A DNA stretch of 63,714 nucleotides, counting the filler, from Catajapyx aquilonaris (taxonomy: Eukaryota): assembly GCA_000934665.2 (NCBI GenBank). It is 2 parts of 2 records of this genome, joined end to end, with 100 filler letters (N's around TTAATTAATTAA, not from the genome) between each part and the next. Parts side by side here need not be neighbours in the genome. Positions count along the whole stretch, not along the records: positions 1 to 31,754 come from JYFJ02004491.1; 1 more part is not named here. One strand, written 5' to 3'. Positions 3,303 through 32,813 of this stretch are shown here, one piece after another. Position 1 is the first letter of the stretch; the number at the start of each line of letters is the position of its first letter. The notes beneath the pieces were generated by a model that had not been told where the DNA came from, searched no databases, and worked only from the letters and a program-made list of their open reading frames with translations. Made by a program: the position numbers and the translations under genes.

Positions 3303-3969
3303 TGTGACGTGATTAAGTCGTACACAACAAATGTGGGTCCACTGAGTAACTGGTTTATTCACAAGGCAAACGTAAAAATAACAAAACATGAACGGGTCAG
3401 AGGATAGCTCAAGTATAAGGAGAGAAAGAGAGGTGTAAGGATCGGCCAGTCACCGGCTAGGGCCGCCGGCAAAAAGGCCTTGAACAATCGTGGCTCTACG
3501 GTTTAAATAGTCGGGGTGAAGAAACCTTGCATGATGGGATGAATCAAAAAAAGGGAAGGGTAAGAGGACAGAGAGCAAGGCATGATGGATATGGTGGGGA
3601 GAATACATTGATATGTACATGTGAAATGAACCTTGAAACAATGCGATGACTCTATGACGCACTATACTGCTGGGATACGTCGTAAATAAACAAAATCAAA
3701 GTGACCATGAACTGAGATTCGTGACAGTTCAAGAAAGTCAAAACAATTAATAAAATGATGGATCCGGCGATATCATCACGGAGCCGTGTGTGGCTATGTA
3801 TTCCCCAAGACGGAGTTGCATCCACGGTTGTGGGGCGGTAATTGGTGCTGGGAGAGTGTAAGTTACTACCGGGTATCTTGGTTGAGAATAATCTTCCAGG
3901 AAAGGAGGAAGAGGTGTGAAGGAAGTCATGATGTATGATCGAAGGAGGACAGAGGACTGATTGGCCACA
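3303..3969 (-). mobile_element. LTR (3' boundary firm, 5' boundary tentative)
   Basis: Ends GTCACA before the PBS; minus-strand AATAAA (~3355) and TATTTAAA (~3505) sit as in the other LTRs; TGTGGCC at 3969 is a candidate start. Confidence 0.6.
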
Positions 3970-3984
3970 TCCCGGCGTATGCAT

Positions 3985-5029
3985 ACGTGCGTATGAGATC
4001 AAAATTATTCGCTTCTCCCTGCAGGGGAATGGAAATGAACAGTCTGACCTTCGATTTCCAAACTGTTAGTTGAACAAGACATTGTCTGTAGAGTTCTCTT
4101 TGCTCCCCCGCTGTATCGGATACGACAAAAGATAGGCCTTTTGGCAAAACTGCCGAAATTTGATATATTACTTCGGAAAGCAAATCAGGGGGTACCAATG
4201 CCGGATGTAAAACACCCACGCTTGCCTGTTGAACTGCGGGTAACAAAAACGCCAGTGCATGTCTCAACTGTCCTATGACCGAATGTAACATACGAGTGCA
4301 CTTCGTTAAAGCCACATTGGTCAGGAAAGTAGACACATACTGGTTATACAAATTTATAAATATGTCGTCCACGTGAGCTGCTAATTCTGAAAGCTGATTG
4401 GCCACCTTATTAAGCGCCAAAGTATTATTCACCACCTGCGCGTTCAGCTGGTTGAGCACGGTCAACTGCAATTTTTGAGCATGTATGAGCTTATTCGTCG
4501 ACTGACGGAGAGTGTCAATTTCCGTATTCACTTTATTTAGATCCGATTGCGTTGCGGTCCCAAAAACAAACTGTAAAATTTGACCACCGATGTCCATCAG
4601 ACCACGTTTGGTCCGGGACGGTCCTCTATTCATGCCCAAGAATTTCTCCAGCTGCTTATATTCCTCCTGTACGAGGTTCATTTCATCAGTCAAAAATTCC
4701 AGTTCCTGTGCAAACTGGCTTCGTACCACTTGAAACCAGATGGGTTTGTAAATTTCTATCTGATTGACCTCCGGGAGGGAGTCATTACAAACATCACCGT
4801 GTGAGCGCAGTAAATTGCTAAGCTGGGAAATCTGAGTGGACACATTCCACAGTTGCTCATTCAGAGGAGCAAAGTCTAAGTCCAAAACTACATCCCAGCT
4901 GTTGTCCGTGTTAATGAATTGTCCTATTTTGACGAATAGAACTCCGGAATTCTGAAGTGATCCTGGAACGGGGTCTTGGGTTCGTATCGCCAGAATCCGC
5001 AGTAGGCAGGTAATCATCAGGAACCACAT
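3985..5029 (-). CDS. env: Errantivirus-type env / baculovirus F-like fusion glycoprotein, C-terminally truncated
   Basis: Signal peptide MWFLMITCLL; furin site RTKR; fusion peptide GLMDIGGQILQFVFGTAT; heptad repeat; upstream pyrimidine tract + CAG acceptor at ~5053. Confidence 0.9.
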
Positions 5030-5969
5030 GTTGATTCCCTTTTCTTTTCTTGCTGAAAAAGAACACACTTATGCTAACATGGATTATTCATGCATTCCTC
5101 GAGTCTTCTACGTTGCTCCATGTGGGAACTGCCTTACATATTGATTCTTCATCTCTTCACATATGCCCCCCTAAGGAAAATGACCACACTTATACCCATG
5201 TATAAGGTCATCATTTTTTTTCTGAAGTGTCTCAGAAGTCGTGTCATCAACTAAACGTAATTAACACAAGACGGTTGACGTTAAAGTTTTCCGATAGCCA
5301 AACCACCAAGAAAAGATACCACAAGTATTCACAGTATATAGTTTATTGCGTATGTGTACACAGGCAAAGGGGTTGCCTGTTTTAAACAGTATTAAAAAGA
5401 TAACAAACTTGGGGCTACTTACACAAGTTGGAGCTTCCTGTAGAGTCGTCCTGGAGAGAGAGCCCAAGAGAGGCGGAGGACGCTTTATATAGGGACCGTT
5501 TGCCCTTCAGAACAAGGAAATCCACGCGTGTTACATAATTAACCTTGGATATGCAAAAGCCAAGATGGACGGTACATCCGATGTACCTGCAAAACTTAGT
5601 TATATAAAGGTGACCTCTGTCCGCCCTTGAACAATACTAGAAGAGTACTAACTCACGCGTGTGCAAATGCTACGTACAGAAACAAACATGGCGCCCTCCC
5701 CGACAATTCACTTCCCTCTCCGGAAGAAATTATGGCCAGCGCCATTTCTCCTTTCACACTCATGGATAAACTGACAAAATTGAACATCTCAAATAACACT
5801 GGGAGAGAAAACTCGCACACCAAAGGAACAATAATCAAAAAATCCAAAAGAAGAGCAGAAGAATACAAGACATGACCGTGAAGGCAACCTTTTTCACTTC
5901 TTCTGTTTGGGCTCCCGGACCTTCCAGACCCTTCGTGGACCGGGCTGCCGTCGGGTCCCATAGGGGCGC

Positions 5970-6852: not shown

Positions 6853-7120
6853 CTATTTCTCTCTCAGCACTGCACTACGAGGGCCATTAGGCAGGTTTTG
6901 AATCCCAGTTTCATCTTTGTCTATTAGTTGAGGGTGTTTCCTTTTAAGATGCACGAGAAAGGACTGAAAGTTCATGTACACCTTGGTGCATGACTGAAAC
7001 CAACAGGAAATTTTGAATCCCGGCTGGGAATTGTGTACCACATTAATATGGTGGCTTAACCTATATGTTATTACAGAGCAATGGCACCTGGGACATGAAT
7101 AAAGTGGCAAGGTTGCACTG
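6853..7120 (-). pseudogene. Tandem C2H2 zinc-finger fragment, probably the N-terminus of a DNA transposase (EnSpm/CMC-like)
   Basis: CPRC..H....H and CWFQSC..Y..F..F..HL...H. Confidence 0.5.
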
Positions 7121-7314
7121 CTGGCCATTGCGTTAGCTTCAACGTATGTGCTGTTGTGATGTGCGATGTGATGCCTGCTGTTGTCAGTAATATTATCTGA
7201 ACACGCTGCCATTATTCTGAAATTGCAGGAGTGCTTCAATTATATTCATGAAAAAGTGCAACTATAAAGACTCGTCATCGAACTAACAAGCATATGACGC
7301 ACTTCTTAACAAGG

Positions 7315-7545
7315 TCCAGTCACTCCCACTCTGCGTCCGAATACTTTGGCTATCCAAAATATAGTTCATCAGGGGGCTTTGTCGGCTTCCCCTTTTTATG
7401 TCCATCCAGGCTGGCCAGTTATCAGCCGTCAGCCTTTGTCATGACGTCCAAGATTCAATAATTTCCAAAGTTTAGCAATAGTTTAGATTCGGCTGTTCAT
7501 CCTCCCCTTGCCTCACAATGGTCCTTGATAGTCTTGTATCATCTT
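7315..7545 (-). repeat. Decayed ORF family 'Y' (duplicate of ~24572-24810)
   Basis: Clear DNA similarity over ~230 bp. Confidence 0.8.
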
Positions 7546-8355
7546 CTTATGTTTTTCGGAGGTTGATTGTCTTCTTTAATGGGTCTGTTGTTCCATCCTC
7601 GGACGTCACATGGTCAGTCCCTTTCCGTCATGATAAAATTATACCGTTGAATGGGTATTGGGTAGATGCATTAATGTAATTAGTCCTGTTAAATAATTTT
7701 TTGATGTACAGGCGTGTATAGTATTGGTATTGTTTATGAATATGACATATTATTAGAAATACCGTCTTTTACAGTTACACACACTCACTAACAAGTCGTG
7801 TAACTAACAGGTGTAACAGCTAACAGGGTACGATGGGGTACGATGGTCTGATGTCCCAATGAACAGTGTGGACCACTATGGACCTATGGTGATATTGATA
7901 CTGTATTACCTCTCATATTGCGGCACGCTGGTATAAAACGAGGTCGACCAGCATGCCGGTATAACCCAAGGGTGGCCGGCATGCTGCAATATCCGAGGTA
8001 GATTTCCTTAATTTTGATCCTTGACAAAAATTTTGGAATGTATTTGGTACTGTACTAAAATAATGAAGCTTGGCACTTTTAACTGAAAATGTTGCCAGGA
8101 AAGAACTTAACAATAACGATCTTATGGGAAATGTCAGGCAACAGAAGTGTCCTGGGCTGTATCCGCACCATAGAACATGGTGCAATGCATTCATTTCAGT
8201 AATAATTTTCACAGAGATCGTAATAATGCCGTGCTTAAGAGAACCTCGCCTTATACCGCCATACCTCGCTTAGACCGGCATGCCGGTATAGCCACCAGAT
8301 CTAGCATTTTTCAAAACTGGTCCACCTCGGTATTATATAAAATGCATGGTATTAA

Positions 8356-8880
8356 CTACACTTGCATGGTACAGGTTATTTGGATGATTCTATGAGTATC
8401 CAATGCGGCCGGAGGGTGCACATATCTGCACTCCACGCCTCTGGGGCAGATGCCCAGGAGATAGTCTCGGCATATCTCTGTTTGATCTGGTTTTTGAGGA
8501 GCCTTGTTTGCTCTTTTCGACATCGTGAAGGTATCCGACAAGCTCTTCAGATTTGCTCTGCACTTCGTGATGCAAAAACCCTGGCGTTACGCTTCCTCCT
8601 CTTCCTGCCCGGAGGAGGGCTCCAAAGAGGCACTCCTTGTCGTTCATCGCCTCCCAGTCTGCCTCCTGCCACTCATCCCGGTCTTCTTCTTCCTCCCAGT
8701 CCCTGAAGTCCTCCTCCGGATCACTCCAGTGTGGGACTTCCTCTTCTGGGTTTTCCAGGTCAACGGCCCCCACTCGATGTCTATTTGGTTGTCACATTCC
8801 GGACTTGGTCCGTCAGCCGGAAGACGACCTTCGCTGTCCTCTTTGTTCTTGTGTCGGCGTTGGGTTTTCAACCAACGATA
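8356..8880 (-). pseudogene. Acidic Trp-rich accessory ORF fragment followed by a CCCH zinc finger
   Basis: HWSDPEEDFRDW..WEAMNDKECLFGALLRAG matches 11783-12301; CRDYLLGICPRGVECRYVH = C-x7-C-x5-C-x3-H. Confidence 0.7.
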
Positions 8881-9728
8881 ACTGTCGTGTAGGTTCGAAT
8901 AATGTGGGAAGGCTGTATTAAAAGTGTGACTTTAATATGAGATATGTACAAATGTTTTCTACAACTTATTATGGTACAAGATACAATCTTTTTTGAAGTT
9001 ACGATGTCCCCAAATAAAAGTTAATTCTCAATCAATGTTGTCTTAACAAAGGCCTGGCCAATGCCAGCCTCACGGGTTAATTCTGAGCAGCTACATTCCC
9101 AATTGTGAGCCCTAGCCCGCGCCCAGGAACTCTCTTGTCCTGTTCCTCAAGTTACTCTTATTATACTGGGCTGTGCCTGACAATATGAGGAAACCCTCCT
9201 ATTGCACAAGCAAAGTCAGCATGTTTTGCCCAATGTGGCAAGACTAATACTCGTGTGGCTCATTAAGATATGGATTGCCAAATCCACTTGTAACATACCC
9301 CCCACCTATGCTAAAAGTTGTTCTTGCGACCTAGAATAAGTTTTAGCTTAACCCAATATGCCTATTACTGTTGAGACAACATTCCGAACTCAACCAAAAT
9401 TGTTTTGACAAGATTTTTCGTCTTCTTCTTGGTCTTCTTTTGACTTCTTTTGACTTCGGTCCAGCCTCGTCATCTGGTCCGATTTCTCAGTTGTATCGTC
9501 CGTTCTCTTGGCGGTGTCCGTTCTCTTCGTCAGTGGTGTCCCTCTGGTTAACGTGGGGACCTGTTGTTGTAACCGAGAAGGGCGTCGTCTTCTTCCGGAC
9601 TATGATCTGTCTGCTCCGTATACTCTATAATAACGATACATTGTTACAAATCACCGCAATATATGACCCCTATATTCCAGGCTAGGCAGTCAAAGGACAA
9701 TTATTAGTGCAACAGTAGTAACTATTCC

Positions 9729-10205
9729 CTAATCAGGGATATGACTCCTTACTAGACCACGGGGTGATCTACTCCGAGGCGCGTCCTCCTCATCTTCCGG
9801 CTCCACCAAGAGCCTGGCGAACCAAAGCTCGTAGATGCGGCCCGGAAATAATGCCTTCTTGACCACTCCTCTTCTTGCTGTTGTCTGCCAACGAGTAGAC
9901 GGTGCCAACACCCACTTTGGGTCCTCCCCAAAAACGTTGACTAGTTGTCGCCAGGACCTTGCGGTCCCTGTCTCTAACTCCAGGTGCAGGCCCTTATGAC
10001 TGGTTCTTAGTCCCGTCCACCCCTTAATGGGCCCCCAGAGGCGGATTTGGATGTCCACAGTCGCACCTGTCGTGCCTTCCCTGGCTCTGATGGTCAGCCT
10101 TGATCCCTGCAGTTGTATCTCTGGTCGTTCAGGCTCGCTGGCGAAGATCTCTAGCACCAAGACTTTGCCGAATTGGCGCCAGCTGATCAGGTGAGAGCTG
10201 CCCAT
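9729..10205 (-). CDS. p23/CS (HSP20-like) domain protein, copy 1
   Basis: ISWRQ..LVLEI..P.IQL..RL.IRA..LWGPI..LEL..W..L..P.WV matches the p23/HACD3/TDRD12 CS pattern; paralog at 14402-14827. Confidence 0.7.
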   Translation of the reverse strand: MGSSHLISWRQFGKVLVLEIFASEPERPEIQLQGSRLTIRAREGTTGATVDIQIRLWGPIKGWTGLRTSHKGLHLELETGTARSWRQLVNVFGEDPKWVLAPSTRWQTTARRGVVKKALFPGRIYELWFARLLVEPEDEEDAPRSRSPRGLVRSHIPD

Positions 10206-10514
10206 CTTGTGACTGTCGATGTTCTCCTGTCGTCCCTTTTCAAAACTACTGCCCGATAATGTCCAACTGACATTTGCGTGGCGTCTCACGGTTTTCTCTC
10301 TGTGATTTCCTTTTTACTACACTCTAACTGTATGTTTCCCTGAAACAAAGTCTCAACCTTTACTCTCGGTTGGACTAGACCGCCTACCCAGACTTGGTAG
10401 CTGTCTATTTTATTCCTTTGAGGTTGTCCCTGACTTCCTCTCTTGTGCTTTTTACTATGCACCTTCCTACGTAGGACTCCTTTTCACGTTTCCGCGACCT
10501 TTTCCCGGTTTTGC

Positions 10515-11430
10515 CTATGATTGGCTAACCTTGTGGTATCCCTGACGACACCTACTTAGATGCTGCGTGTCCTGTGACACCAGCTTGAAATTTCTCCGAA
10601 GACACGATTTACTTTTCTGCCTCTTCTGGGCATGCTCATTGCTTCTTTGCTCGCTGTCCCATCTTTGGTCATGCGCGTGCCTAATGACCCAACTAAGCGC
10701 GCATGCCGTACGTGTTTCCTGGACGTGCGATAGGCTGATGGTGGAAGTTCTTCCGGTGTCCTCTTCTCCTTTGGCTGGTTCCGGCTGGTTTGGCTCAACT
10801 CGTAGCTTTTCGACTTCACTCACTACTGTCTCTCTCCAACCCCCCTTCTTGAAATTTAGTGAGTTTAACTATCGGTCGTCGGTCAGCTTGGTTGCTTGTC
10901 GCATTCCATTCCAGTGCTCCATTGTGTAGTCCGATAGGACGCTTTCCTTGGATTAACGCCTCCTCACCAACAATAGTATCGGTGGTTTTAATTATTTCAA
11001 TGTCCTTACATTCTTCTTGGGGAGGGCGCAACTCGAAGGACAATCAGCTTATCTCCTGAGCAACGCTCCTGTAGTTTGGACATTTTAGTTGAATCTCGTC
11101 GTGAGGGCCTTTTGTGAACAATGCCTTTACATTCCGAAGAAATTCCTTAAATTCCTGATCCCTTCTTTGAATTTTGCAATTGCCACCTTACATACGCCCT
11201 CTCTTGACAAATGAGGACCCTTATACCCGCTGTAAGGTCCTTCATTTCCTTTCGTCCCTCGATGAAACGTAGCTCTCCAGTCCATTCTTGACGGCACGAC
11301 CAGTGAGTCGACCACGCCCAGATCGCCACTGGATGTATTAGGAATTTCCTGACGTTTACCTCAAATTTGCAAGAAATTCCTCCAGCTTTTGAGGACGGAG
11401 TGATCAAATTGGTACCCCAATGAACAGGCT
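10515..11430 (-). pseudogene. Frameshifted unknown accessory ORF 'Z'
   Basis: Overlapping minus-strand ORF pieces; duplicated at 865-1398. Confidence 0.45.
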
Positions 11431-11782
11431 AGAGGAGAAATTACCCCTGGTTCTATACTGTTGGGATTTGGGATTTTTTGGTTGTTCTTTTCGATTTTAT
11501 TTCTAATCCTAATGGTCGAGGCTATTTGTGGTCGAACTACTAATCAAAAACAATCCAATTGAACTGACGAGTCTCCGGGTACACCGTTGTTGGGGGTGAG
11601 GCGGAGTGACAGGTTTTACTCCCCCACATTCTGCAGCAACTATCACTCACCAAGAGCAAAGAGCATGTGTGCGCACCACAGCCCCCAAAAGAAAGTATTA
11701 AAGTTTTTTTTTTTTCAAGTTCGATCACCAATCACCTCTCTATTGCCTAAACACTGTTAACCTAGCGAACTGATTGCCACTT

Positions 11783-12301
11783 CTAATGTATAATCGCTAA
11801 TTTTATTAACTCCCCTGTATTGTCACAATATTGACACTTTTTAAGTCCGGGGCCCGATGAGAATTTTTTTTTTGTATATCGGTACCCCGGACAATTTTGT
11901 TCTAGACAATATTTTCGAAACTCTTCATATTCCTCCACCACGCTGTCGAATTGGGCTTTTTCGTGACCCGACACGTGGAGGACCCAAGCGGTCGCCCAGC
12001 TGCCGGCCCGGAGGAGGGCTCCGAAGAGACACTGCTTGTCGTTCATGGCTTCCCAGTCCGTCTCCACCCATTCGTCTCGGGCGTCTTCCTCCTCCCACTC
12101 CCGGTAGTCCTCTTCCGGGTCGCTCCAGTGCTGGACTTCCTCGTCAGGATTGTCCAGGCCCACGGTCCCCTGCCCGATTTCTTCCTCGTTATCTCTTGGT
12201 TCGACAGCCGGACGACGACCGTCGCGGTCCTCTCCGTTTTTGTCTCCCCTGCCCAATTTTCCAAAGAAATAAGCAAGAATGCCTAACGTGATCACCAACA
12301 T
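11783..12301 (-). CDS. TM-anchored acidic protein with His/Cys C-terminal domain (accessory family 'T')
   Basis: Kozak ACCATG at 12301; hydrophobic N-terminus; TATATAAAA at 12354-12362; homologs at 8390, 13930, 15560 and 25164. Confidence 0.65.
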   Translation of the reverse strand: MLVITLGILAYFFGKLGRGDKNGEDRDGRRPAVEPRDNEEEIGQGTVGLDNPDEEVQHWSDPEEDYREWEEEDARDEWVETDWEAMNDKQCLFGALLRAGSWATAWVLHVSGHEKAQFDSVVEEYEEFRKYCLEQNCPGYRYTKKKFSSGPGLKKCQYCDNTGELIKLAIIH

Positions 12302-12574
12302 GGTGACTGTAGACAAATCAGGGTATGGTGTGGCAATCAGTTCGCTTGGTCTCTTTTATATACTTATTGCTTGAAGATATCATAGTTACACAAAGTACAT
12401 GGTGTTATCCTTTTGGCACTGCACTCAGTTGAAGGGAAAGAAAAAGAAAAAGGAAAGGAAAAAAAAAAGAAAGGCACTGTTGATCGGCTGCTAAGTCTGG
12501 TCTCTGGTCTTATCATAAATTTTGCTGATGCCGAGCAGCTGCTATCTTCAATTCCAGCAATTTTTTTTCTTCTT

Positions 12575-12830
12575 TTATTGTTCTGCTATTGCCTCCGTGG
12601 CCAGTCGGTTTTTCTTAATGCGCTGTTTAGGGGGTGGTTCGATGAATGTAGGGTCTGGATCTTCTTGGGCCGGAGGAAAGGGTGTTATGGGCATGGATTC
12701 CTCTGGAAGGGTCGGCAAAGGTGTCTGCTTCGGAAAGGTTTTCTTCAAGTAGTGCCTCACTCTCTGGAAAATTATGTAGGCTGCTCCAACGAAGAGGAAG
12801 TGTCCCAAGATTAAGGCCTATATCATCCAG
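12575..12830 (-). CDS. Small TM + Pro-rich ORF overlapping the end of ORF 'X'
   Basis: LGHFLFVGAAYIIF..EE.MP; homolog in the same position at 26161-26400. Confidence 0.5.
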
Positions 12831-13447
12831 AGACTTGGAGTAGTCGGGTTTGTAGTTGTTTGGTCCAAATTGTCAGCTAGTAGCTCCATTTTGCTTCTTA
12901 GGTGTTGTAATGGGATCTCCATGTCCTTGCTTTGCTGGAACTCCCTCCGCTGTCCCTCCAGCTCGGAGGCTACACCATCCAGCTTCTGGACCCACTCTTC
13001 CATCTCTTCCGTGGTCCTCGGCGTCATTATGGGATGATACTGGGGAGCTTCCAGCAAGGTGGTCATCTGGGGCTCGTTTTCAATGAAACTTTGACCCACG
13101 AAGGTAGCTGGTAAGTGTATCCCCGTGGTATAGGCAGCACACAAAGCAGGTAACTGTAGTATCCCCACCCCTTGAATTTCTTTCTCAAAAGATTCTACCC
13201 CACTGGGAAATTTTGAATCGGGACATCTTAGTGACATTGGAGACACTAGCTTACCGTTGGCCATGTTTCTGACGCGGAGCACCTCAAAGACGGCGTCGAC
13301 GGCTGCCTCCGCGTCTTCGTAGTCTTCTTCCAAGATCTCCTCTGGCAGCTCGGACAGCCGCCGGAGACTGGTGATCACCCCCGTCCCGCTCATCACGGTT
13401 AATGTGGCGATTGAGGAGGGGGGGTCAGATAGGCTGCACTGACTCAT
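12818..13447 (-). CDS. Unknown accessory ORF 'X'
   Basis: 209-aa ORF; homologs at 23610-23786 (N-terminal half) and 26400-26800 (LPALCAAY..GIHLPATF..PQYHPI). Confidence 0.65.
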   Translation of the reverse strand: MSQCSLSDPPSSIATLTVMSGTGVITSLRRLSELPEEILEEDYEDAEAAVDAVFEVLRVRNMANGKLVSPMSLRCPDSKFPSGVESFEKEIQGVGILQLPALCAAYTTGIHLPATFVGQSFIENEPQMTTLLEAPQYHPIMTPRTTEEMEEWVQKLDGVASELEGQRREFQQSKDMEIPLQHLRSKMELLADNLDQTTTNPTTPSLWMI

Positions 13448-13929
13448 TTCCCCACCAGATTCAATAGAGTCGACTGAGGTTGCCCTCTATTGTCAATTCT
13501 CCCGATGTCTTAGGCAGAGCCATCATAATTAGTGGTCATCCCGAGAAACCAACAATTGGCATTACTTCCTTAATACTAGTACAATAGTTATGCACTGGAA
13601 TATTTTGTTAGTACACTGACATATGTTAGTATACATACACTTCTGGTTTAACCCTGATGATAAGGACACTTGAGAATCATTTTAAAGCTAATTATATTTC
13701 ATTAAGAATGAGTGTTTCCTCACTCAATTGTTGAAGATGAGTTGTTGTTACACCCCATCCAGCCGCAATTGAGAAATTTAACTCCCATCAAGACAATGAA
13801 CATAAGTCCCATTTTGTTGTTGTTTTTGTTTAGTGGAAGGCTGCAATCCTGCCATTCGCTGGCCCCAGCATTTTTGGCCACAGGAAGCGTTGCCCCGGTC
13901 ATCCGGTGATCCTACAGTAGTGTTCAAAT

Positions 13930-14400
13930 AGGATTAGGTCGCCCCTGCCGTTGAACGCTCCGTTCAGGTGTTGCCACACGTGGTTGGACCCTCCAGCGTT
14001 CTCCCGGTGGTGGTGATAGTGGTAGAGCTCTCAGAAGACGTCTTCCATCTCTGGGGGCTCCGGCCAGGCCCCCCTGCCGAAGGACACTTCGCTGGCGCCC
14101 TCATCCCAGTCCTCGTCGTCCTCGGGAGAAGGCCCGGCCGGCCCCCTCCAGGTCGTCTTCCATCATCCTTGGTCGCACTACCGCCTGCTCAAACTGAGGC
14201 CCCTCCAGGTCGCTCGGGTCCAGCTGGGCCGGACCAGCTACTTTCTCCTCGTCCGGATTGACGTGTACTGCTGCTGGAGGGTCGACTGCTCCTTCGACTC
14301 AACCTCCGGGCAGCTGAGTTCCATCCGGGTCTGGACACCCATCTCCTTTTTCTGGAAGACCAGTGCCCATGCGGTCTTCAGCAACCAGTCGATACCCCTC
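13930..14400 (-). pseudogene. Degraded family 'T' member downstream of the CS gene
   Basis: Translates DEDWDE..WPEPPEMEDVF*ELYHYH..RENAG..NHVWQHLNGAF, matching 25164-25637. Confidence 0.65.
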
Positions 14401-14401
14401 C

Positions 14402-14827
14402 CTATACGCTACACAACATCTCCTTATAAGGTAAAATTGTTCTCCTTGCCTGGCTTATCTGGGCTGGGTGCCTCAAATAACTGCAAGCTGGGAATGGCAT
14501 GTGTAGCTTCCATTTGGAACTGGCCTTCAATACCCACCCCGGTTCCTCGCCTAGTGTGTGCACTAATTTTGTCCAACGCTGGTCTGTCTCTGTCTGGAGC
14601 TCTAGGTGTAGTCCGTCTTTGCTCGTCCTCAGACGTGTCCACCCCCGGACTCTCCCCCAGAATTTGAACCTCACGTCCACCGCGGCTCCGGAATCTTCTT
14701 CCCTCGCCCTGATGGTTAAAGTGGACTTCTCCAGTTGTATATTCGGCTCCTGTGGGTTGGAGCAGAAGACTTCCAAGACCAGGGTCTCCTCGTATTGTCG
14801 CCAGCTGATGTCGTGTGAACTGCCCAT
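14402..14827 (-). CDS. p23/CS-domain protein, copy 2
   Basis: MGSSHDISWRQYEETLVLEVF..FWGRV..RWTKLV..PGWVL. Confidence 0.7.
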   Translation of the reverse strand: MGSSHDISWRQYEETLVLEVFCSNPQEPNIQLEKSTLTIRAREEDSGAAVDVRFKFWGRVRGWTRLRTSKDGLHLELQTETDQRWTKLVHTLGEEPGWVLKASSKWKLHMPFPACSYLRHPAQISQARRTILPYKEMLCSV

Positions 14828-14832
14828 CTTGT

Positions 14833-14866
14833 GACTGAACGTTCCGTCTTCCTGGTCCTTTATATA
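14833..14866 (-). promoter_or_regulatory. TATA box + arthropod initiator for the CS gene
   Basis: TATATAAA (14866-14859) lies 30 nt before TCAGTC (14838-14833), followed by ACAAGATG. Confidence 0.7.
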
Positions 14867-15559
14867 GGGGTTGCTTCCTTCCTTGTGCTTATGCCACCCT
14901 TCGGTTCGTGGTGATTTATAAGTCAAAACACTAATTATTATCTGCACTATTGGTCGTTTGATTACCCTTACACATGCATTTTCGCAATTCCACATTGCGC
15001 AGTCTGGTCCTTTCTCGCAATGGCGCAAGTCATGCTCACTCTACGAACGCCTGTCTGTCTTTCCTAACTGCAAATAACTCGGACTTCGGAGTGATTTCTA
15101 CGATTACTTTGGAATTATTTATTCTAGTGGCCATGGGATTGCTCGGTACAATTCAAAAGAATCTGCATCTGCCTTCAGTGGAATTGACAGAACACGACGA
15201 GCAGTTTCGTCCATCGGTATCATTAACCCTTTTGCCCATCGGTAATACAAGGGTATTGACTCTTTATCAGCTGGTATTGCCAGATGTAACCCGTTCGGTA
15301 GATTGGGTAATATCTGGTGTAAATAGTGGGGTTTCCGGGAAAAACCCTCGAGCCTTGTACATCTTTATTTCCGGGTACTATAACAACATACATTTCATAC
15401 ATTGAGGGTCCCGAAGGCCCTAACGAAATCATCATTGTTTTACATATACCAGAATCAACACCCCTATTATGTATAACAACATCTAATGTTCTCTGGTTAG
15501 TTTCCACACTTTATAACTTCATCTGTATACTGTTTTTCACTCTGGGGTGACACTAATAC

Positions 15560-16142: not shown

Positions 16143-16935
16143 ATTTTTTTATTATTTATTTATTTATACTACCCCATTTTGGAGCAGAGCTTCTATAGGG
16201 GGACACACCTTAGCCATTACACAAGGACATAAATCTGCTTACATGGCAAAAAAAAAATTGTGAATGTCAAAAATAAACTGTTTAGTTGATTCTGCAAACA
16301 ACAAGTACATCTGATTTGGCGGGCAACGTGTAACATCTTCCAAATAGTTCGTACGAGGGGTGTGAAAAATGGGGCATTCAAACAACAAATGATGGTAGGT
16401 AAAGTCTAGACCCAAATTGCACCAATCACACACCTGCTCAGGGAGAAACGCAATTTTATGACCTACCACATAAACAGACCTTGAATTTTTTTTCAGGTTG
16501 AGCCAGAGCCTTAAATGGGGTAGGGGAAGATTGGTCGCTATCGATTTGCCTTTAATTAATTCCGTCTGGATATGAAACTTCCCTGAACTTGAGAAAGTTA
16601 CCCCAAGATACTTGTACTTATTTACAACTTCAATGACTTCTGAACCCAACGTAAACCTAGCATCTCGGGGCACCTTACCCGCCTTTCTAAAAACTATAAC
16701 TTTCGTCTTGGACACGTTAACCTTCAGACGTAAGGAATCGCTCCCTCATTCATTTTTCGATTCCTTATGTCACACAGCTAATATTTGCAGAAATTGATTG
16801 ATAGTTGTCAATCAATTTCTGCAAATATAAGCTGTGTTTAGAGAACAAAACAACATCATCAGCAAAAATCAAAAGTTGAATGTCTGCCGTATTGGGCCCA
16901 AAATTCACTCCCGGAGTCTGGGAATTTGCTAAAAA
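16143..16935 (-). mobile_element. 5'-truncated, internally deleted non-LTR retrotransposon (RT C-terminal part + CCHC + A-rich tail)
   Basis: LLIFADD, KTKVIVF, YKYLG, CDWC..HLLFEC; AATA tail at 16143-16165. Confidence 0.85.
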
Positions 16936-17989
16936 AGATTTTAGTTTTAGTGTGCAGAGTGTGACCGTTCGGTACGGTCGGTTCGATGGGTGCGTGGGAT
17001 TAGAACAACGAACAGTTAACAACAAGTAATATATATTTGATAACAATAACAGTCTACATTACTGGGGGTAACCCCCATACAATTGTGCTACATCGGATAG
17101 ACCATGCTATATTACCCTAACCGCACTAACTCCCTGTCCTGGCTTGCAGCCTCTTTTTATTGGGAGTTGGGCGGTTGTCACGTTGGAATTGTTTGTGTGT
17201 GTGTGTTCATCACCTATTGTTTTCACTATCTCATATTGTGCCATTACCTATGCACAATATGGTTGCGTTAGTTATGTCTACGGTGACAACACCCCCTTTC
17301 TTAATCCAAACGTCACGTTTAGATGCTTGTATATTACCTATGACTGACCTCACACACAACAATGTAATGGATGACAGATTTCCTCCGTATGATGCTGCCA
17401 GGAAGTAAAAACCTTATTTTTACGCAAGACTGAATTATATATGACAACGGGGTGTGTGGGATCGTTCTGCTGTGGACGGCGGCAGTGGCATCCAGCTCCT
17501 TGTATATGCTCCAGCTGACATCCCGCGGCGTTTGCTGAGGTAACTTGGCATATGAGGCTATGGTCTTGGTCTCCAGCGTCGAATTTGCTGCCGGTGGCCT
17601 TCTTGTGCTCCACCGTCGATGTGTGTGGTGTGTCAACGACCGCTGTCCTGTTGCCGGTTTCTTCATCCTCCTTGTTTCCCATCAGCCTATGTCTGCCTCC
17701 TCTTACAGCGTGCACATGCCCATTGTCCGCTTCTGTCCTTTGACTGCTCCCCATCCTTTCTCCTAGGTCGGGTGTTGTACAGGATGTTGCCATACATAAG
17801 ACAGTCATGTATTCGTTATTAACCAAACTATCTTCCTGAGAACATATACCATAATCATTTTAAATTCAATCACTCGTCCCCTTGTGGGATGTCATATTAA
17901 GTTGTTTTTTTCCGACTGGTGTACTACTCAACGTAGTATCTCGTTATCATGTCCCAAAAATAAATAAAGTAAACAAAATCACATAAAAC

Positions 17990-18375
17990 AATTCACATAC
18001 GTGGGTTCATCATGAGCCTCTCCCCTTAACGTCGGTGATCTACCTAGCTCAGGTTCTTCATCCCCCGCACGCAACCCATCACAACTGATGGTGAGACTTA
18101 GCTCGTCCGGTACATTGTAAAGCAAATGTCCATTTCTACCTAAATTAATGAATATAGGGTCGTATTTACCTATCAAAATCTTCAGGCATATGCTTGCCTC
18201 AAGTCCATATCCCGAAATCAAGGAAAACAGGCATGATACTCTCGGTTTGGAATATACTGCACGAGGTCTAGTGCATACCCTAGGTTGCCCACTCTCACAC
18301 TCGTTTAAGTCCCCTTCTTCCAGCATCATGTATGACTGCTTATCCGCCGACACGGCCATAATTATATGGATGGTC
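17990..18375 (-). pseudogene. env: env (F-like) Cys-rich ectodomain fragment
   Basis: MLEEGDLNEC....RVC....VY.....SCL parallels 26822-27060. Confidence 0.7.
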
Positions 18376-18844
18376 AATTTTAAATGCTACAGAAATGTTC
18401 ATTATTGGTACCGGCCACTGTATTGCTCTTTATAGCGTATATCGTTCACTGTCTTTCTGTAACGGTATCGTTATGTCGAACCCTCCGCGTAATTAAGGAC
18501 TTACCTCAATTATCTGGAAGAGAACGAAAGTTGTGGCAAACGCAGGAAAAAGTTGAAATGAATATGGACACGACTCACGTGTTTTTAAATATTGGTTATT
18601 ATTGACACTTGTTGTCCAATGACAACTGAATTTACACCGTAGTGCGCGGTTTTCGTGCCTCTCTTACTGTTGCTGACTTTTTCCATGGCGGGTAGCTTCC
18701 CGTCTGACCAGGGGAAGGTCACGGCCTCTGGTACATCTGGTCGTCAAACTGATCTGAATTGTTGGTCTGTCGTCTCCCCGTGCCACCTGCTCAAGGCTAT
18801 TTACTTTCCATGTTAAACGTTACTCGACATTACAACATGCGTAT

Positions 18845-23840: not shown

Positions 23841-25163
23841 AGGCAATGGTCATGGAATGTGAGGGGCGAAAGGAAAGGATGCACTGGAACACTGTCTCAT
23901 TACTATGTCATTACAATAATGAGTTAGTTTTACTGGGGGTTAGTAACACATATTACACCAATGTTTTGGTTTATTTTATATTCAGAGGAAATCTGTAACA
24001 CACTCTAGATGTTACAATATTATTGTCCAATTGTCCACTTGTTGACACGTGTGTGAAGTTTGGATCCAAAATGGACTCCCAAGTCACGAGTTGTAACATC
24101 CAAACCTCTGCAAGTCATTTTCGAGTTGTAACGTAGGCAAGGTTACCTGCCGTGTCTCCACTTGAAAGCGGCGGGTTAGGTAACTGTCTAGTCGACCAAT
24201 GAGTTGAGATCATAGACCTTTCTCCCATACATAATCATGGTATTTATTTGACCCTTTTAAACCCCATTACAATGACTTATTAACTAATAGCATGACCCAA
24301 AAACGGACTGACAACACTTAAAACATGACCCTTCAACAATGCCAACCGGCTGGGCTCTGCAGGACTACACCCATGACCACCCTGCCCATCCGTCAGTAAC
24401 TCACGGCCATGTTGTCGCTGTTCCTTCCGTCTCTGAGGTCGTTCCTTCCCTCTAAATCAGGCTGAACTTCAGGAGATGGTCACTGTAGCTTCGCGACTTC
24501 TTCCAGACGTCCTGGCTGAATGGCTGGTTGACTTCTTGGCTACTTCTGGTATGAAGGTGGCCTAGTTGTACGTCCAGTCACTCCCACTCTGCGTCCGGAT
24601 ACTTTGGCTGTCCAAAATATAGTTCTCTTCTCCTTCTTGGGGCTTTGTCGTCTTCCCCTTTTATATCCAACCAGGCTGGCCGGTTATCAGCGGTCAGCCT
24701 TGGTCATGACGTCCAAAAATTCCATAATTTCCAAAGTTTAGCGGTAGTTTAGATTCCATTGTTAATCCGCCCCTCGCCGCACAATGGTCCTTGATAGTCT
24801 TGTATCATCTTCTGTCATTTGTTTGTTTTTGGGTAGATTTTATTTTCCTTTTTTCTCAAGAATCCTTTTTTTCTCGTATATTCTACCTGAATATTTATTA
24901 TATCTCTGTTTTTTTTCTCATATACATAATCCCAAAAACAATTTTCTTCTTCATTTCTTTTTTTCTCATAGGCCTAGTTGGCCCGATACATTGCATAACC
25001 AAAAAAATCATATATATTTGACTTCCCTTACTTTTTTCCATACATAAGCTAAATCAGAAACAAAATTTGAGAGAGAAAAAAATCTTTTTGGTTTTTTTCT
25101 TTTTCCATTGACTTCATAACTTCGTCCGCACACTGAGTCACTGATCTTCACCTTGGGGCGTCA

Positions 25164-25740
25164 CTAGTACTCAGCAGCACGACCGTTGCCCGGGCCCACC
25201 ATCAAGGGTGTCAGGTGCCTGTGACTCGGACAAGCGGTCATGTTGCAGAAGGTGGCGAAGCCGTAGAACTCTTCCAAGCTGGTAAATGTCCCATCCAGAT
25301 GCTTCCGGATATGGGCCCTCCAACCTGGATTGTTCCGTGCTACGTGATGATCATATAGCTCCCAGAAAAATGGTTCCATGTCCACAGGTTCCGGCCAGGC
25401 CTCGTCATCGTCATCGTCCCAATCCTGGGCTAGAGGCGGAGGACCAAAGGCCTCCTCCCGTTCCTCACTGCCCTCTGGTTCTTCCCGGATCGGTCTCGGC
25501 GCTACCTCTTCCTCCGTCCGAGTCACCTCTTCCTCCGTCCGAGTCACCTCTTCCTCCGTCCGAGTCACCTCTCCTTTCTTCTTTCTTATGGCCCAGAAGA
25601 GAGCAAGTCCGGCCAAAACCACCAGCGAACCCCCCATCAGGAGTCCTTTTTCGACTGCCCGAGTCCGAGAGGGCCACGTCCTGCTTCGCCGGAGTCTGGT
25701 CTGGAGTTGTTCCTGGCTTCTGATGACCTATCTTCTATGA
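25164..25740 (-). CDS. Family 'T' member with a 21-bp tandem repeat (EEEVTRT x3)
   Basis: TM, acidic linker, W..H...H..F.SLEEF..F..FC....CP..R..GPG. Confidence 0.7.
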
Positions 25741-26140
25741 CGTCGTTATCCTCCTCCGTTCCTTCATAGTACATAACAACCCCTTATATGGTATAAAAAT
25801 GTTCCCCTTGTTGTCCATGCACTGCTTATCTGGGCTGGATGTCTCAAATTACTGCAAGCTGGCAATGCCACGTACAGTTCCCGCAAAAAAAAAAATCACA
25901 TCCCATTCCCAAGGATTTTTTTTCTTCTTAGTCAATTTGTTTTGATCCCCAATGTACTAGTCCACCAAGCTGCCATTGTTTTTCTGCTCAGGCGGCTGGT
26001 GCTCAATCCCGAAGCTCTACCCACACGTACGAAGAAATTATCTTTTGTACACTCACAAAAAAAATCACTTGCTCACTCAGTACTTCTAGTTCGTCCGTAT
26101 CCAGTGGTTCTTCTTTTCCTCGTGTCAGGTATCTCCTACT

Positions 26141-26800: not shown

Positions 26801-27066
26801 GGCACCGAATTGACATCGGCGTCAGTTTTGGGACAGAAAACAACCACTCGCCTCTTTTGATTCGATAAAAAATTGGGTTGTGTGTTTGATAATTTTTGCA
26901 TCACATAAATCATCATCTACTGGTAAACGTTTTAGGGTGTTGTATGCACAATTTTGAATGGGGGAGCTTTTTATCGGTCCACTAGGTTTGCAAATTCGTT
27001 TAGGGTTTAATGTACAGTGAGACAGATCTTCCTCTGTCATTTCCAAAAAGTAAATCTGATTTGTAG

Positions 27067-29449
27067 TGTGACCTCATTAGGGAACACACATGAAAAAACG
27101 TGGGATCAGTCGAGACAGTTTTAATAGCCAGAAAAAGGGAACAGGGTATAACGGATGAACACAAGCGCCCACCCGGGCTGATCAGTACAATCCCCGCAAC
27201 GGGGAGAGACCAAAAAGCCTTGATACAAATACAAGAGCGGTTTATATAGATCGGGGTATGGGAAGTGCATGATGGGATATCCCCGTCTCTACTAGTCAGA
27301 CGTCAGGCTAAAATGCACTTGGGTAGGAAAATGGGTATGCGTACATCAAGGAGAAATGGGATCGGAACGACAGACTATAATGTGCCCAAGGACAACAGTG
27401 TATAATGGGCATATGTAACAGAATTCTTGACGGACATACAATACAGATAGAGAAGTTACTCAACCGGGATTTAGGCATGACACCTGTTCCTCAAAGTAAA
27501 AGGGTCACACACCTCCGCCGTGAGAACTCTCCCCGGGTTTCATCTGACTGAGGTTTCAATTTTCTTACGATAATGGGGATGGCATTTATACAGGTGAAAA
27601 AGGGTGAGAGGGGTGAAATTGTTCTTTACCAATGTTGGTCCATTAAACTTTGACATGCGCGTGAAACACCACTGTACTCTTCAGCCAAATGTCATGAAAA
27701 TTAAACACATAAAACGGACTTGGCCTCATTCTCAATCAACACGAGAAACAACATTAAAAAAAACCGTGACACACAACATCTGGTGCACAACACCGTAGTT
27801 CGATGTGGTACTGGGTGGCTATTCACTCACTCGTGCACATGTCAGGGAAGTCCAAAAAAATGCAGGAGTCGTCCTCTTTGTGGTCACTGGCGTCATCTAT
27901 GGAAATCCGCTGACGGTACCATCAGAGCTGTTCAGTTCGACCAGCCGTCGGGATGGTTCTCGGCGCCGGCGGCGTCGTCGTGCCCCTCCACTATGGGTCA
28001 AGGTCCATGATGGGTTCAACACCACCGGGATGATCGGCGTCTCAAAGTATTCACGAGGTGATTGGTCGGTCTCCGGGGCACATCCCAGCAGACACCGTCG
28101 GTGAAGGTCAATTTGACAATGGTATTCAGTCAAAAGGTCGTTACCGATGATAACCGGGGTTATGGATGACCGGATTACGTAGAACGGATGGTGAAGCAAG
28201 GAAGTCCCAATTAATACCGGGAGTATCACCTCTTCACGAGGTGGGATGCAACGTCCATCATACATCACCAAAAAAGCTCCTGGGGTTGGCCTTGAAGGGG
28301 GCCGATCGATACCAGTCAGCACTGCCAAAGCGCCTGCCGCTATGGTTGAAGCTCCTGTGGCTCCTAACAGTAGTGCTTTCCACTCCCGGCCGTATATGGT
28401 GATGACAATGGAGGAGGCGGGACATTCACGGACGCCCTCGGTCAAAAGGGACTGGCTGGTGGCCATCTGGTCGGTAGTCACTCTGATGATCCACTTGGCG
28501 ATGGGATGGTTGTCGTACTCCAACTCCACCTTGCAAACGAATAGACGCCAGGTCCCTCCACATGAGGGTTAAATAAGGGGTGGTAGATATCCCAACATGC
28601 ATTAGATCAACTCTGCTTTAACCTTGTGACGACACGGGTTCAAACCGCATGTCAAAAAAGGCAATCTAAAGGGAGATGCATCTCCCCATTGCACCAAGGT
28701 ATCCATGTAACGAATACACAGTAGGGCATACCCCCACCGTGTGTGGGGGTGGCCCCAAAACGTGATTAGCTCGTATACAGGGCAGAACGACGGGACACAA
28801 AAAAAGGGACCCCCTCCAGGAATTTTCCAAGGGGTACAAATGTCCGTGTTGACCTTTACAAATATGCATTTAAAATTGGGAATCACGTCATCCTCCTTCA
28901 CCACGCACAAAAGAGGCATGTGTGGACTGGGACCGTCCCGTAGGGAACGAGGGTCATGTCCTTCTGGCACTGTAAGACTATTTTGGATCCCACTTCTGAC
29001 ACCATTTGTGTGACCTCATTAGGGAACACATGAAAAAACGTGGGATCAGTCGAGACAGTTTTAATAGCCAGAAAAAGGGAACAGGGTATAACGGATGAAC
29101 GCAAGCGCCCACCCGGGCTGATCAGTACAATCCCCGCAACGGGGAGAGACCAAAAAGCCTTGATACAAATACAAGAGAGGTTTATATAGATCGGGGTATG
29201 GGAAGTGCATGATGGGATATCCTCGTCTCCACTAGTCAGACGTCAGGCTAAAATGCACTTGGGTAGGAAAATGGGTATGCGTACATCAAGGAGAAATGGG
29301 GTCGGAACGACAGACTATAATGTGCCCAAGGACAACAGTGTATAATGGGCATATGTAACAGAATTCTTGACAGACATACAATACAGATAGAGAAGTTACT
29401 CAACCGGGATTTATGCATGACACCTGTTCCTCAAAGTAAAAGGGTCACA
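27067..29449 (-). mobile_element. Intact non-autonomous LTR element carrying a degenerate retropepsin ORF
   Basis: LTRs at 27067-27509 and 29009-29449 (~98% identical by eye); TSD GTAG; Leu PBS 28987-29004. Confidence 0.95.
27897..28529 (-). CDS. Retropepsin-like ORF lacking the catalytic Asp
   Basis: ITIYGREWKALLLGATGASTI..HPFYVI..PVIIGNDLL..HCQID. Confidence 0.7.
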   Translation of the reverse strand: MELEYDNHPIAKWIIRVTTDQMATSQSLLTEGVRECPASSIVITIYGREWKALLLGATGASTIAAGALAVLTGIDRPPSRPTPGAFLVMYDGRCIPPREEVILPVLIGTSLLHHPFYVIRSSITPVIIGNDLLTEYHCQIDLHRRCLLGCAPETDQSPREYFETPIIPVVLNPSWTLTHSGGARRRRRRREPSRRLVELNSSDGTVSGFP

Positions 29450-30491
29450 GTAGTAAGTGCCAAGTACGGATATTTTGGTGTAACCACAAATGCAGTCTCT
29501 GAATTGTTAATGGGGGTCGGCCAAGACAATACCTTGTATAACTCAAAATATTGCGTAGAATCTCGCAACGGAATGTCTATTAATAATCTAGTGGCTCCAG
29601 GAATGGCCACTGCTATCAATTTTCCAAACTGATAATAGTCATACAAAGTAGATTTGTCTAATGGCACCACAAAGGACAATTGACTTGGAAGTTTCTTAAT
29701 GAGCTGTATCAAAATTGCATTTAGTTGTGATGGTGGCAAAATGTATGTGGGTATTGACCCCTGGCTCATAACATCTATGGAGTGCAATATTTTGTTGTAC
29801 AAATCGTTTATGACTCCTAAATTAACTTCGAAAGCCCTAAACAATGTGTCCGTGTTTACAATGGCTAAAATTTGGGTTCCCATCTCACTGAATTGTTTAC
29901 TAACTGTTTGTACTAACTGTAAGTCTTTCATATCTGTTGTCAAGGTGTAAGTAATATTTCTGAGTGAGTTTAATGCTAATTCATTTTCTTTGGTCCTCCC
30001 TGCAATCTGTTCAATTATTGTGGCTTGCTCATCGAAAATGTGGAAAGTTCCTTTTTGAGTCGACACCAAGTGATCTATGCGCTTGTTAATATCCTTCTGA
30101 GTAGAGAGGCCAAACAAAAACCCTAGTGTTGCTCCCACAAACGTTAATATTTTTAACCCTCTTTTCTTCCATTGCTGTAATGGCAATGTGAAAGTGTCCT
30201 TTAATTCGCTGAATCTACATCTGAGACCACGTGTTTCATTCATTAGGCGTGACAACTCTGTCTCTTTCAAATAATAGATCTCAACTCCTGTGACCCCAAG
30301 CTTAGCCAAAAATTCATTCCATTTTTCAAAGAAATTATTGGTAGTTTTGAAAACTTTTGTAGCTCTGCCCCTAGCGTACTGATTAGTTCCATATAAGGTT
30401 CAAATTTAAAGTCCATGATTAGGCGCCATTGATTCTCAGAAACCAAGAATCCTTCATCTTGCGGTATGTACATAGACTCTAGCTTCCGGAT

Positions 30492-31390
30492 TCAATCTCG
30501 GTGCAGGTGCACGATTAGTGGTTGGGTTTCCAGTAACAGGTGGGGCCCCTCTTTGGTGAACTTAGGCTGTGAAGGCCCCCGCTCATCTACCCACGCATCC
30601 TCATAGAAAACCTGAGGCATCTCCTCTTCCTCCAAGTCCTCACCTGAATCCTCAATGTGTTTATTTCCGGAGTCGGCAGGTGAGTCCCACTCAACCTGCC
30701 CTTGTACCGGGTCAGACACAGGTTCCTTCTCCGGATAGGGTGCTCTAGGGTAATACTTTCTCAACCTGTCAACATGTACTACCTGAGTTTTCTTACCATT
30801 TAGCTGCTTGATTTCAAAATTAACTGGGGTTGTCTGTTTAATAATACGGTGTACTTCCTTCCAATGCTTATCCAGCTTTGGTGACCCCCCTGGCTTAGTT
30901 AAGGGATGGTACAACAATAGTAAATCCCCTACTTTCAAATTCTTCTGCTTAATTATCTTGTCATGATATTTCTTCTGACTGGCAAAAGCTTCAGCTATAT
31001 GTTCTCTAGCTGATTTGTACGCATTCTGTAGCCGTAACAACAGCTCTTCCTTGTAATTTTCTCATACCGCGTAATTGATTCTAGTAGTTCCTAGAAACGT
31101 ATCAAACGGCAGTTCAGGGTCACGGCCAAACAATAGGAAAAAGGGTGTCTCCAGAGTTGAGGCGTGCACTGCTGTGTTGTAAGCCATGGCGACCAACTTC
31201 AGTTGTTCGTCCCCAGTTCTCTGGTCCTCGTCGATGTAATGGCTAATGGGAAATCATTTTCACCAAATTTCCGTTAAATCCCACTTGTCCATTTGCGGCT
31301 GCGTAGTATGCAGAAATCTGGCAATAATTTGCTAATGTCCTTGAGTAACTGTGAAGTTCGATCCATGATCGGTGATAAACGTCCTTGGCA
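30492..31390 (-). pseudogene. Ty3/Gypsy integrase core + C-terminus
   Basis: ITDHGSNF, AYNTAVHAST..TPF..FGRDP, QKKYHD..VGDL..KL..HW..VVHVDRLRKY. Confidence 0.9.
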
Positions 31391-32742: not shown

Positions 32743-32813
32743 TAGTTGCAATTAGCTTTCACTGGACATGTGATCTATTGTTTTTTTTCTCTCTCTCTCC
32801 CTCTCTCTGTCAG

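Follow-up and report, generated by a model that had tools for sequence, protein, structure and literature searches.

Two small open reading frames (ORFs) that resemble each other and lie among the debris of retroelements raise a double question: which protein do they encode, and do they belong to the host or to the elements around them? Such a pair of CS/p23-like ORFs is found in a stretch of 63,714 nt from the genome of Catajapyx aquilonaris, hereafter the window, along the whole of which ORF and motif coordinates are counted. Judging from a predicted structure, we conclude that the part shared by both ORFs is a CS domain of the p23 type (an HSP20-like beta-sandwich) that has diverged too far to be recognized by profile hidden Markov models (HMMs). 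As far as the sequence allows one to say, the chances that the two genes are retroelement cargo are about even.

Both ORFs lie on the minus strand where the preliminary description of this locus had placed them, and the ORF list together with BLASTP supports their status as paralogues, with 61 of 107 residues identical (57%) in an ungapped alignment (E 7e-45). In copy 2, the residues shared with copy 1 begin at the ATG at 14827. All the motifs quoted earlier (ISWRQ, LVLE, LWGPI/FWGRV, WRQLV/WTKLV, and PKWV/PGWV) are indeed present in both. The match is not due to chance, since the CS cores are 60% identical as DNA and the identity is distributed over codon positions 1, 2, and 3 as 57/77/46%. 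The proportion of nonsynonymous differences (pN) is 0.30 versus 0.73 for synonymous ones (pS), giving a dN/dS of approximately 0.13, a value that is imprecise because dS is saturated. The pair has the pattern of an old duplication that has been retained as protein and carries the coding signature of purifying selection. A tblastn search with both proteins (E ≤ 10) revealed no third CS copy in the window; the one extra match covers 21 aa of the copy 2 tail, at 25818-25880.

The sequence before the start codons is conserved as well. The layout reported for copy 2, in which TATATAAA is followed after 30 nt by TCAGT and then by the ATG, was found, the ATG coming 9 nt after the A of TCAGT. Copy 1 retains ACAGTCACAAGATG with an ACAGT at the same 9-nt spacing, but without the TATA box; its counterpart, TTTGAAAAGG, stands at the expected position and is degenerate. 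From CAGT through ATG, 18 nt are identical between the copies despite the saturation of synonymous sites elsewhere. When the whole window is searched for TATA-N17-26-CAGT, the minus strand yields the copy 2 site only; the plus strand yields two sites unrelated to it, with ORFs 3 and 5 codons long behind them. We read the TATA/CAGT layout as a putative core promoter and, given the conserved CAGT 9 nt before the ATG and the canonical TATA box of copy 2, each copy probably forms a small transcription unit of its own. A splice acceptor is another possible reading of the CAG before the ATG; in both copies, however, the 25 nt ahead of it are rich in purines.

That the domain has a CS/p23 fold had also been claimed, and here structure prediction, two independent fold searches, and the protein-atlas features of both copies agree. 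AlphaFold2, run on a two-row alignment of copy 1 and copy 2, predicted a seven-strand sandwich with a predicted local distance difference test (pLDDT) value of 69.9 and a predicted template modelling (TM) score of 0.60, residues 94-107 falling below a pLDDT of 50. With this model, all eight Foldseek matches in the PDB with E ≤ 0.001 are p23, Sgt1 CS, or Sba1, the top one being the p23 of the glucocorticoid-receptor maturation complex (E 1.2e-4, TM 0.74). A search of 48,161 chains, made independently of Foldseek, likewise ranked p23 first (Z 11.8, root-mean-square deviation [rmsd] 3.0, 101 aligned residues), followed by Sgt1 CS (Z 10.9), Ncb5or CS (Z 10.8), and Sba1 (Z 10.5). The titles of its ten best rows (Z 9.3-11.8) are exclusively p23, Sgt1, Sba1, Shq1, Ncb5or CS-b5R, or nuclear movement protein, and no small heat-shock protein scores above Z 8.8; according to the search tool, models without a true match usually peak at Z 7-8. 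Identity in the structural alignments is about 10-18%. The protein atlas employs language-model features and is independent of the AlphaFold2 model. Its nearest cluster to both copies is one in which 88% of the members carry PF04969, with a score of 0.91 in each case; copy 1 shares 191 of 256 features (28 of its 30 matches are in CS sets) and copy 2 shares 193, its next clusters being named for p23.

Several results weigh against this assignment. The HMM search with the Pfam CS family (PF04969) that the preliminary description had suggested as a check failed: the full ORFs gave no CS match at E ≤ 1, and both 107-aa cores matched zero families at E ≤ 10. Three sequence searches of the PDB returned 0, 0, and one irrelevant FeoA match (E 0.62). 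An hmmsearch of 1.84 billion representative proteins produced one match only (P0001), a 221-aa repeat protein in which the shared 18-residue motif occurs four times and which we judged spurious. A word-indexed search with copy 1 gave 2 candidates, neither of which was scored, and pattern matches in viral contigs (37) and metagenome contigs (187) included 0 confirmed relatives. The fold, moreover, depends on a single model from a two-row alignment, and folding copy 2 by itself did not yield a usable model (pLDDT 39.9). One could, then, propose some other small beta-sandwich, either alpha-crystallin-like or unrelated, with the predictor having been drawn toward p23. The missing HMM support in Pfam and the PDB, the middling confidence of the AlphaFold2 model and the failure of the copy 2 model, and the matches to small heat-shock proteins at Z 8-9 would all suit such a proposal. 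We nevertheless regard it as highly improbable, since all ten best rows are entries of the co-chaperone type, standing 2-3 Z units higher than the rows of heat-shock proteins, and since the atlas searches, which use no model, arrive at CS/p23 clusters for both copies.

The tails should be annotated with more caution than the domain. Beyond the CS domain, the two copies show no likeness, and the copy 2 tail is not acidic (1 aspartate or glutamate [D/E] in 34 residues), both of which count against the explanation preferred below. The DNA of the copy 2 tail matches 25770-25881 with a length difference of 11 nt that puts the two out of frame; the tail is, therefore, flanking element sequence that the ORF runs into. 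The copy 1 tail holds 8 D/E in 51 residues, or 13 in 68 when a candidate intron is removed. The genes had been described as intronless, which is correct for the CS domain itself and less certain toward the 3′ terminus of copy 1, where there is a hint of a 130-nt GT..AG intron. The two ends of the candidate intron read GTAAGGAG..TTATAGAG, and the skipped 130 nt start with GTAAGG and finish with TATAGAG; splicing here would give an in-phase junction and a product of 175 aa whose tail is more acidic. A contig from sequencing run X5 (95% alike, gap-free over 9753-10240) passes from 9753 to 9621 with a single intervening T. The library type of this run is not on record, so that X5 contigs cannot show expression, and the junction may reflect splicing or else a paralogue that has lost the segment; a look-up of RNA samples for this stretch listed none.

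The pair does not appear to stand alone. In runs X1 and X2, contigs that are 80-99% alike pile on both CS copies. In X1, the word depths add up to 109-116 for copy 1 and 65-108 for copy 2, compared with 16-23 for window-identical contigs, although summed word depth, as the tool itself warns, should not be equated with copy number. In run X5, from a second sample, gap-free contigs extend over the CS ORFs of copy 1 and copy 2, at 95% and 87% likeness, respectively. To judge from these contigs, the CS family has further related copies.

Table 1. The two CS/p23-like genes, their putative control elements, and surrounding features of the window
Feature	Coordinates	Strand	Basis or remark
CS/p23-like gene, copy 1	9729-10205	minus	ORF, 158 aa including non-conserved tail; CS core 9885-10205
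Conserved stretch upstream of copy 1	10206..10240	minus	ACAGT 10216..10212, ATG 10205; homology with copy 2 from ~10239
Candidate intron of copy 1	9623..9752	minus	130 nt, GT..AG, phase 0, after codon 151; hint only
Candidate second coding exon of copy 1	9548..9622	minus	24 codons + stop; translation across the joint
CS/p23-like gene, copy 2	14402-14995	minus	ORF, 197 aa from first ATG
Copy 2 from conserved ATG	14402-14827	minus	141 aa; CS core 14507-14827
TATA box of copy 2, TATATAAA	14866..14859	minus	Sequence
Initiator-like TCAGT of copy 2	14838..14834	minus	30 nt from first T of TATA to A
Tail of copy 2	14410..14511	minus	76% identical over 113 nt to 25770-25881; not conserved as protein
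Tail counterpart in second env-bearing remnant, no CS module upstream	25770..25881	minus	DNA alignment
env-derived fragment ~200 nt upstream of copy 2 TATA	15066..15322	minus	blastp + tblastx
Degenerate post-env segment downstream of copy 2	13836..14070	minus	Colinear with 25167-25401; tblastx 43.6% over 78 aa
Membrane-anchor + acidic module ORF, downstream of copy 2 unit	11786..12355	minus	Paralogue of 8393-8791
Acidic Trp-rich module + frame-shifted CCCH zinc finger, downstream of copy 1	8359..8791	minus	CCCH 8359-8586, zf-CCCH E 4.5e-8
MITE-like insertion (miniature inverted-repeat transposable element) after copy 1	9034-9383		350 nt, 15-nt terminal inverted repeats
Repeat R (0.5 kb) upstream of copy 1	10714..11234	minus	Second copy 868-1400, 93% identical
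Y segment (~245 nt, sharply bounded)	7311-7547 and 24569-24813		87% identical
Integrase C-terminal domain	266-640	minus	Pfam PF22938
env, Baculovirus F type	3929-5068	minus	Pfam PF12259
Weak env fragment	17982-18386	minus	Pfam
env ORF, Baculovirus F type, of CS-less remnant	29434..30399	minus	Pfam PF12259, E 9.7e-12
Integrase C-terminal domain, directly upstream of env 29434-30399	30495..31061	minus	Pfam PF22938, E 1.1e-8
Small insertion bounded by long terminal repeats (LTRs), cutting env	27066-29449		Direct repeats 27066-27509 / 29008-29449, 444 nt, 98%
Host gene exon, conserved pinin/SDK/memA region	32730-32963	plus	
Host WDR3/Utp12-like WD40 gene	56105-61413	minus	

Where, then, do the two copies sit? 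The first 32 kb of the window are a one-orientation patchwork of retroelement pieces, and the recognized pieces, namely two integrase ends, three or four pieces of env, a CCCH finger, and acidic ORFs, are all on the minus strand (Table 1). An errantivirus-like order, integrase and then Baculovirus-F-type env on one strand, occurs at 30495-31061/29434-30399; the same two families are also present at 266-640 (PF22938) and 3929-5068 (PF12259). Copy 2 is flanked on both sides by sequence of element origin, with an env fragment upstream and sequence colinear with a post-env region downstream. Upstream, the ORF 15122-15364 matches the env ORF 29434-30399 (blastp, E 8.7e-12), with 15322..15066 corresponding to 29712..29455 in tblastx; within the 200 nt that separate this fragment from the TATA box, no other match in the window rose above shuffled controls. 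Downstream, 14511..14410 and then 14070..13852 match 25881..25770 and then 25401..25183 in the same order, the latter pair with 57.7% identity over 220 nt in blastn. This second remnant (25.1-30.4 kb) consists of env, tail, and a membrane-anchored acidic ORF, and lacks a CS module. The flanks of copy 1 recur only downstream, as the acidic module and the Y segment; the order there is MITE-like insertion, acidic module, 245-nt Y segment. Its acidic Trp-rich module shares 79% aa identity over 56 aa with 12002-12169. From the flanking order seen downstream of each copy, the CS module in both cases precedes a membrane-anchor or acidic ORF, and two other units have the membrane-anchor/acidic ORF without a CS module.

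Some further details of the patchwork are worth recording. The acidic module follows a membrane anchor at 11786-12355 and precedes a frame-shifted canonical CCCH finger at 8359-8791; a contig of run X5 is identical to 11911-12190. Database searches with the env ORF and the acidic-module ORF found no relatives. The env of the second remnant is split at ~29449 by the LTR-bounded insertion, its frame seems to resume at ~27065, and a hydrophobic anchor lies near 26250; a similar repeat pair (331 nt, 99%) occupies 21349-21679 and 22969-23299. The Y segment holds a TATAAAAGGGG-like box and, with one copy located directly upstream of a Cys/His-pair ORF (6856-7239), may be a shared promoter module. 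A very high-copy repeat lies at 7900-8330, with a summed contig depth of ~3,000 versus ~20 for window-identical contigs. Two ORFs that by eye looked like the end of a long interspersed nuclear element reverse transcriptase (16242-16745) and a retroviral protease (27900-28568) had no such Pfam match at E ≤ 5, and neither is claimed. Scans for transfer RNAs and Rfam families gave nothing near the CS copies. The uni-strand layout of these 32 kb resembles that of a uni-strand PIWI-interacting RNA (piRNA) cluster or of a tandemly duplicated domesticated locus. Host genes (pinin, WDR3/Utp12-like) start beyond 32.7 kb. Also in the window, CCTAA/CCCTA runs, the complement of TTAGG-like telomere-type repeats, lie within a repeated 150-nt segment at 43886-43968 and 48364-48455, and at least five tandem units of 45-51 nt at 52390-52700, within a 227-codon minus-strand ORF, constitute a coding peptide repeat.

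The preliminary description had called the gene mobile-element-borne. That wording stands insofar as copy 2 lies between element-derived sequences and further related copies are indicated, and falls short in that no bounded element surrounds either copy. The explanation that we consider best, and to which as a whole we give about an even chance, is as follows. Both ORFs are real and belong to a several-copy, lineage-restricted family of small proteins; they diverged long ago, and only the 107-residue CS domain has been conserved between them. Within the patchwork, the CS module behaves as a cassette that may or may not be present, placed after env-derived sequence and ahead of a membrane-anchored acidic ORF. 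Of this picture, the data show the coding constraint, the predicted fold, the promoter-like motifs, and the element origin of the copy 2 flanks; cargo status, Hsp90 binding, and any gain for the element are inferred. Quite a number of observations count against cargo status. Around neither copy did the window reveal an LTR pair, a target duplication, gag, or a reverse transcriptase. Repeat R forms the sole pair that brackets copy 1; it was rejected as an LTR pair for want of TG..CA ends, a target duplication, or a recognizable primer-binding site, and as an element with terminal inverted repeats for want of an inverted partner. The likeness between its copies ends ~20 nt past the 3′ end of R, and a purine-rich run precedes the upper copy only. 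No repeat pair brackets copy 2 in the comparison of repeats across the window. Pfam scanning of 215 ORFs, which left out most plus-strand ORFs below 32.7 kb, gave 0 matches to gag, protease, reverse transcriptase, or RNase H. A TATA box and initiator of its own, 9 nt before the ATG, would be an unusual way of expressing an ORF in an LTR element. The tandem layout in one orientation also fits the segmental duplication of a host locus, or of a locus descended from the 3′ half of an element.

These points lend weight to a host family of p23 paralogues, spread by tandem or segmental duplication and specialized as Hsp90 co-chaperones amid retroelement debris, an alternative that we hold to be possible and somewhat doubtful. 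The promoter-like TATA/CAGT just before the ATG, unlike the arrangement of an LTR-driven retroelement ORF, the prolonged purifying selection on both lineages, the single orientation of all units over 32 kb, the lack of LTR, target duplication, and reverse transcriptase around the copies, and the possible spliceosomal intron in copy 1 are all what one would expect of host genes. Copy 2, however, has an env fragment on one side and post-env sequence on the other, both of which recur in another remnant without a CS module; no relative turned up in any predicted proteome searched (1.84 billion representative proteins); and the divergence of the segments is unequal in nucleotide terms (CS 60%, acidic module 77%, Y 87%, R 93%), so that repeated insertion or recombination fits better than one duplication. 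The copies might, on the other hand, be decaying relics of a gene that was captured or retroposed long ago and now lies in fragments of dead elements, their frames being open by chance or through past selection. The heavily degraded surroundings (a frame-shifted CCCH finger, split env genes, insertions) and the unconserved tails speak for this, and the measured constraint could predate the immobilization of the two lineages. Yet both CS frames are intact where their neighbors are broken, the putative core promoter and start context have been kept in spite of saturated synonymous sites, and two further paralogous contigs run gap-free across the CS ORF, making relics a very unlikely explanation. 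The full form of the cargo reading, in which an env-carrying arthropod retroelement lineage carries the p23-type domain as a separately promoted accessory gene in the gap between env and the membrane-protein gene, under purifying selection, is a tentative proposal that may well be wrong.

What might such a protein do? Host p23/Sba1 docks on the N-domains of ATP-closed Hsp90. By analogy, the CS domain would bind the ATP-closed dimer of Hsp90 in the same manner, and this could change the way in which Hsp90 holds its clients, to the advantage of the carrier element. Because the conserved part has no p23-like tail, the CS protein would be expected to bind Hsp90 rather than to chaperone clients alone, and binding without chaperoning of its own makes a role as modulator or competitor plausible. 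If this is true, we would be dealing with a retroelement-encoded mimic of an Hsp90 co-chaperone, one that could steer the Hsp90-dependent maturation of element enzymes or compete in Hsp90/p23-dependent PIWI loading.

More specific versions of this proposal hold that the element protein recruits Hsp90 to fold its own reverse transcriptase, or that it soaks up Hsp90/PIWI-loading complexes against piRNA silencing. The predicted p23-type fold would suit either role, and both are biologically reasonable because links between Hsp90/p23 and the enzymes concerned have been reported. Hsp90 and p23 are reported to act on the hepadnaviral reverse transcriptase, which Hsp90 activates (PMC2094093), apo-PIWI-HSP90 complexes co-purify with p23, and an AGO2-HSP90-P23 maturation complex is described (bioRxiv 10.64898/2026.07.04.736496). 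Taken together, these papers present Hsp90 and p23 as maturing reverse transcriptases and opening Argonaute/PIWI proteins for loading (PMC2094093; bioRxiv 10.64898/2026.07.04.736496). Against these roles, none of the scanned ORFs of the window links a reverse transcriptase to either copy, and neither can be separated from a general co-chaperone role; we consider the two quite unlikely, and the evidence favors neither over the other, nor either over the host-gene interpretation. Should the CS genes travel with env-bearing elements, they would offer a direct handle on how retroelements manipulate host chaperones or the piRNA defense; should they be host genes, they would represent a fast-evolving family of p23 paralogues that HMM-based annotation has overlooked entirely.

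How do these genes compare with systems already described? The alpha-crystallin domain of small heat-shock proteins is a sandwich of the same HSP20-like superfamily, but its matches are weaker (Z ≤ 8.8, Foldseek E ≥ 7e-3), and none is among the atlas neighbors listed. Sgt1, the CS of Ncb5or, Shq1, and nuclear movement protein/NudC share the fold (Z 9.4-10.9, rmsd 1.8-2.6, 79-92 residues); there, however, CS is one module of a multi-domain protein, whereas here it occurs alone with a short variable tail. The giant-virus CS proteins in BFVD (Hyperionvirus, ChoanoV1, Hokovirus, and Pithovirus) provide a precedent for the CS fold in a non-cellular genome, with the best viral matches at E 7.2e-5 to 1.2e-3 and TM 0.65-0.72. 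They differ in coming from large double-stranded DNA viruses of protists and in being 191-264 aa long with extra regions, and the significant rows of the BFVD search include no retroelement or insect-virus entry.

Among mobile elements, the errantiviruses (env-carrying Ty3/gypsy) are the closest comparison, since in them, too, the C-terminal domain of an integrase precedes a Baculovirus-F-type env on the same strand. Unlike them, the CS copies are without an accompanying LTR pair, gag, or reverse transcriptase, and the putative cargo seems to be self-promoted. Rodriguez et al. (2017) are said to have dealt with extra ORFs in endogenous retroviral elements. Such ORFs are a known theme in an eLife paper on envelope-carrying retrotransposons, the text of which mentions chaperones or p23 zero times (PMC13524379). 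Our literature search found no report of a p23/CS protein encoded by a transposable element or a small virus; the CS co-chaperone fold, gene capture by retroelements, and the CS proteins of giant viruses are already known.

The nearest relative in structure is p23/PTGES3/Sba1, with which the CS copies share the ~107-residue N-terminal beta-sandwich, as predicted, and which supplies the best structural matches and the names of atlas neighbors. Trp positions are conserved as well, including a W-x-x-L near residue 85 that is reminiscent of the p23 signature, Trp-Pro-x-Leu after the last core strands; residues 85-88 read W-R-Q-L in copy 1 and W-T-K-L in copy 2, with Trp and Leu kept and Pro absent. 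Beyond the lack of this Pro, the copies depart from p23 in sharing no more than 10-15% identity with it when aligned by structure, in having no Pfam or PDB sequence match, and in having tails that are unrelated to each other and, in copy 2, not acidic. Finally, p23/PTGES3/Sba1 is one conserved host gene, whereas here several diverged copies appear to be scattered among the pieces of retroelements.

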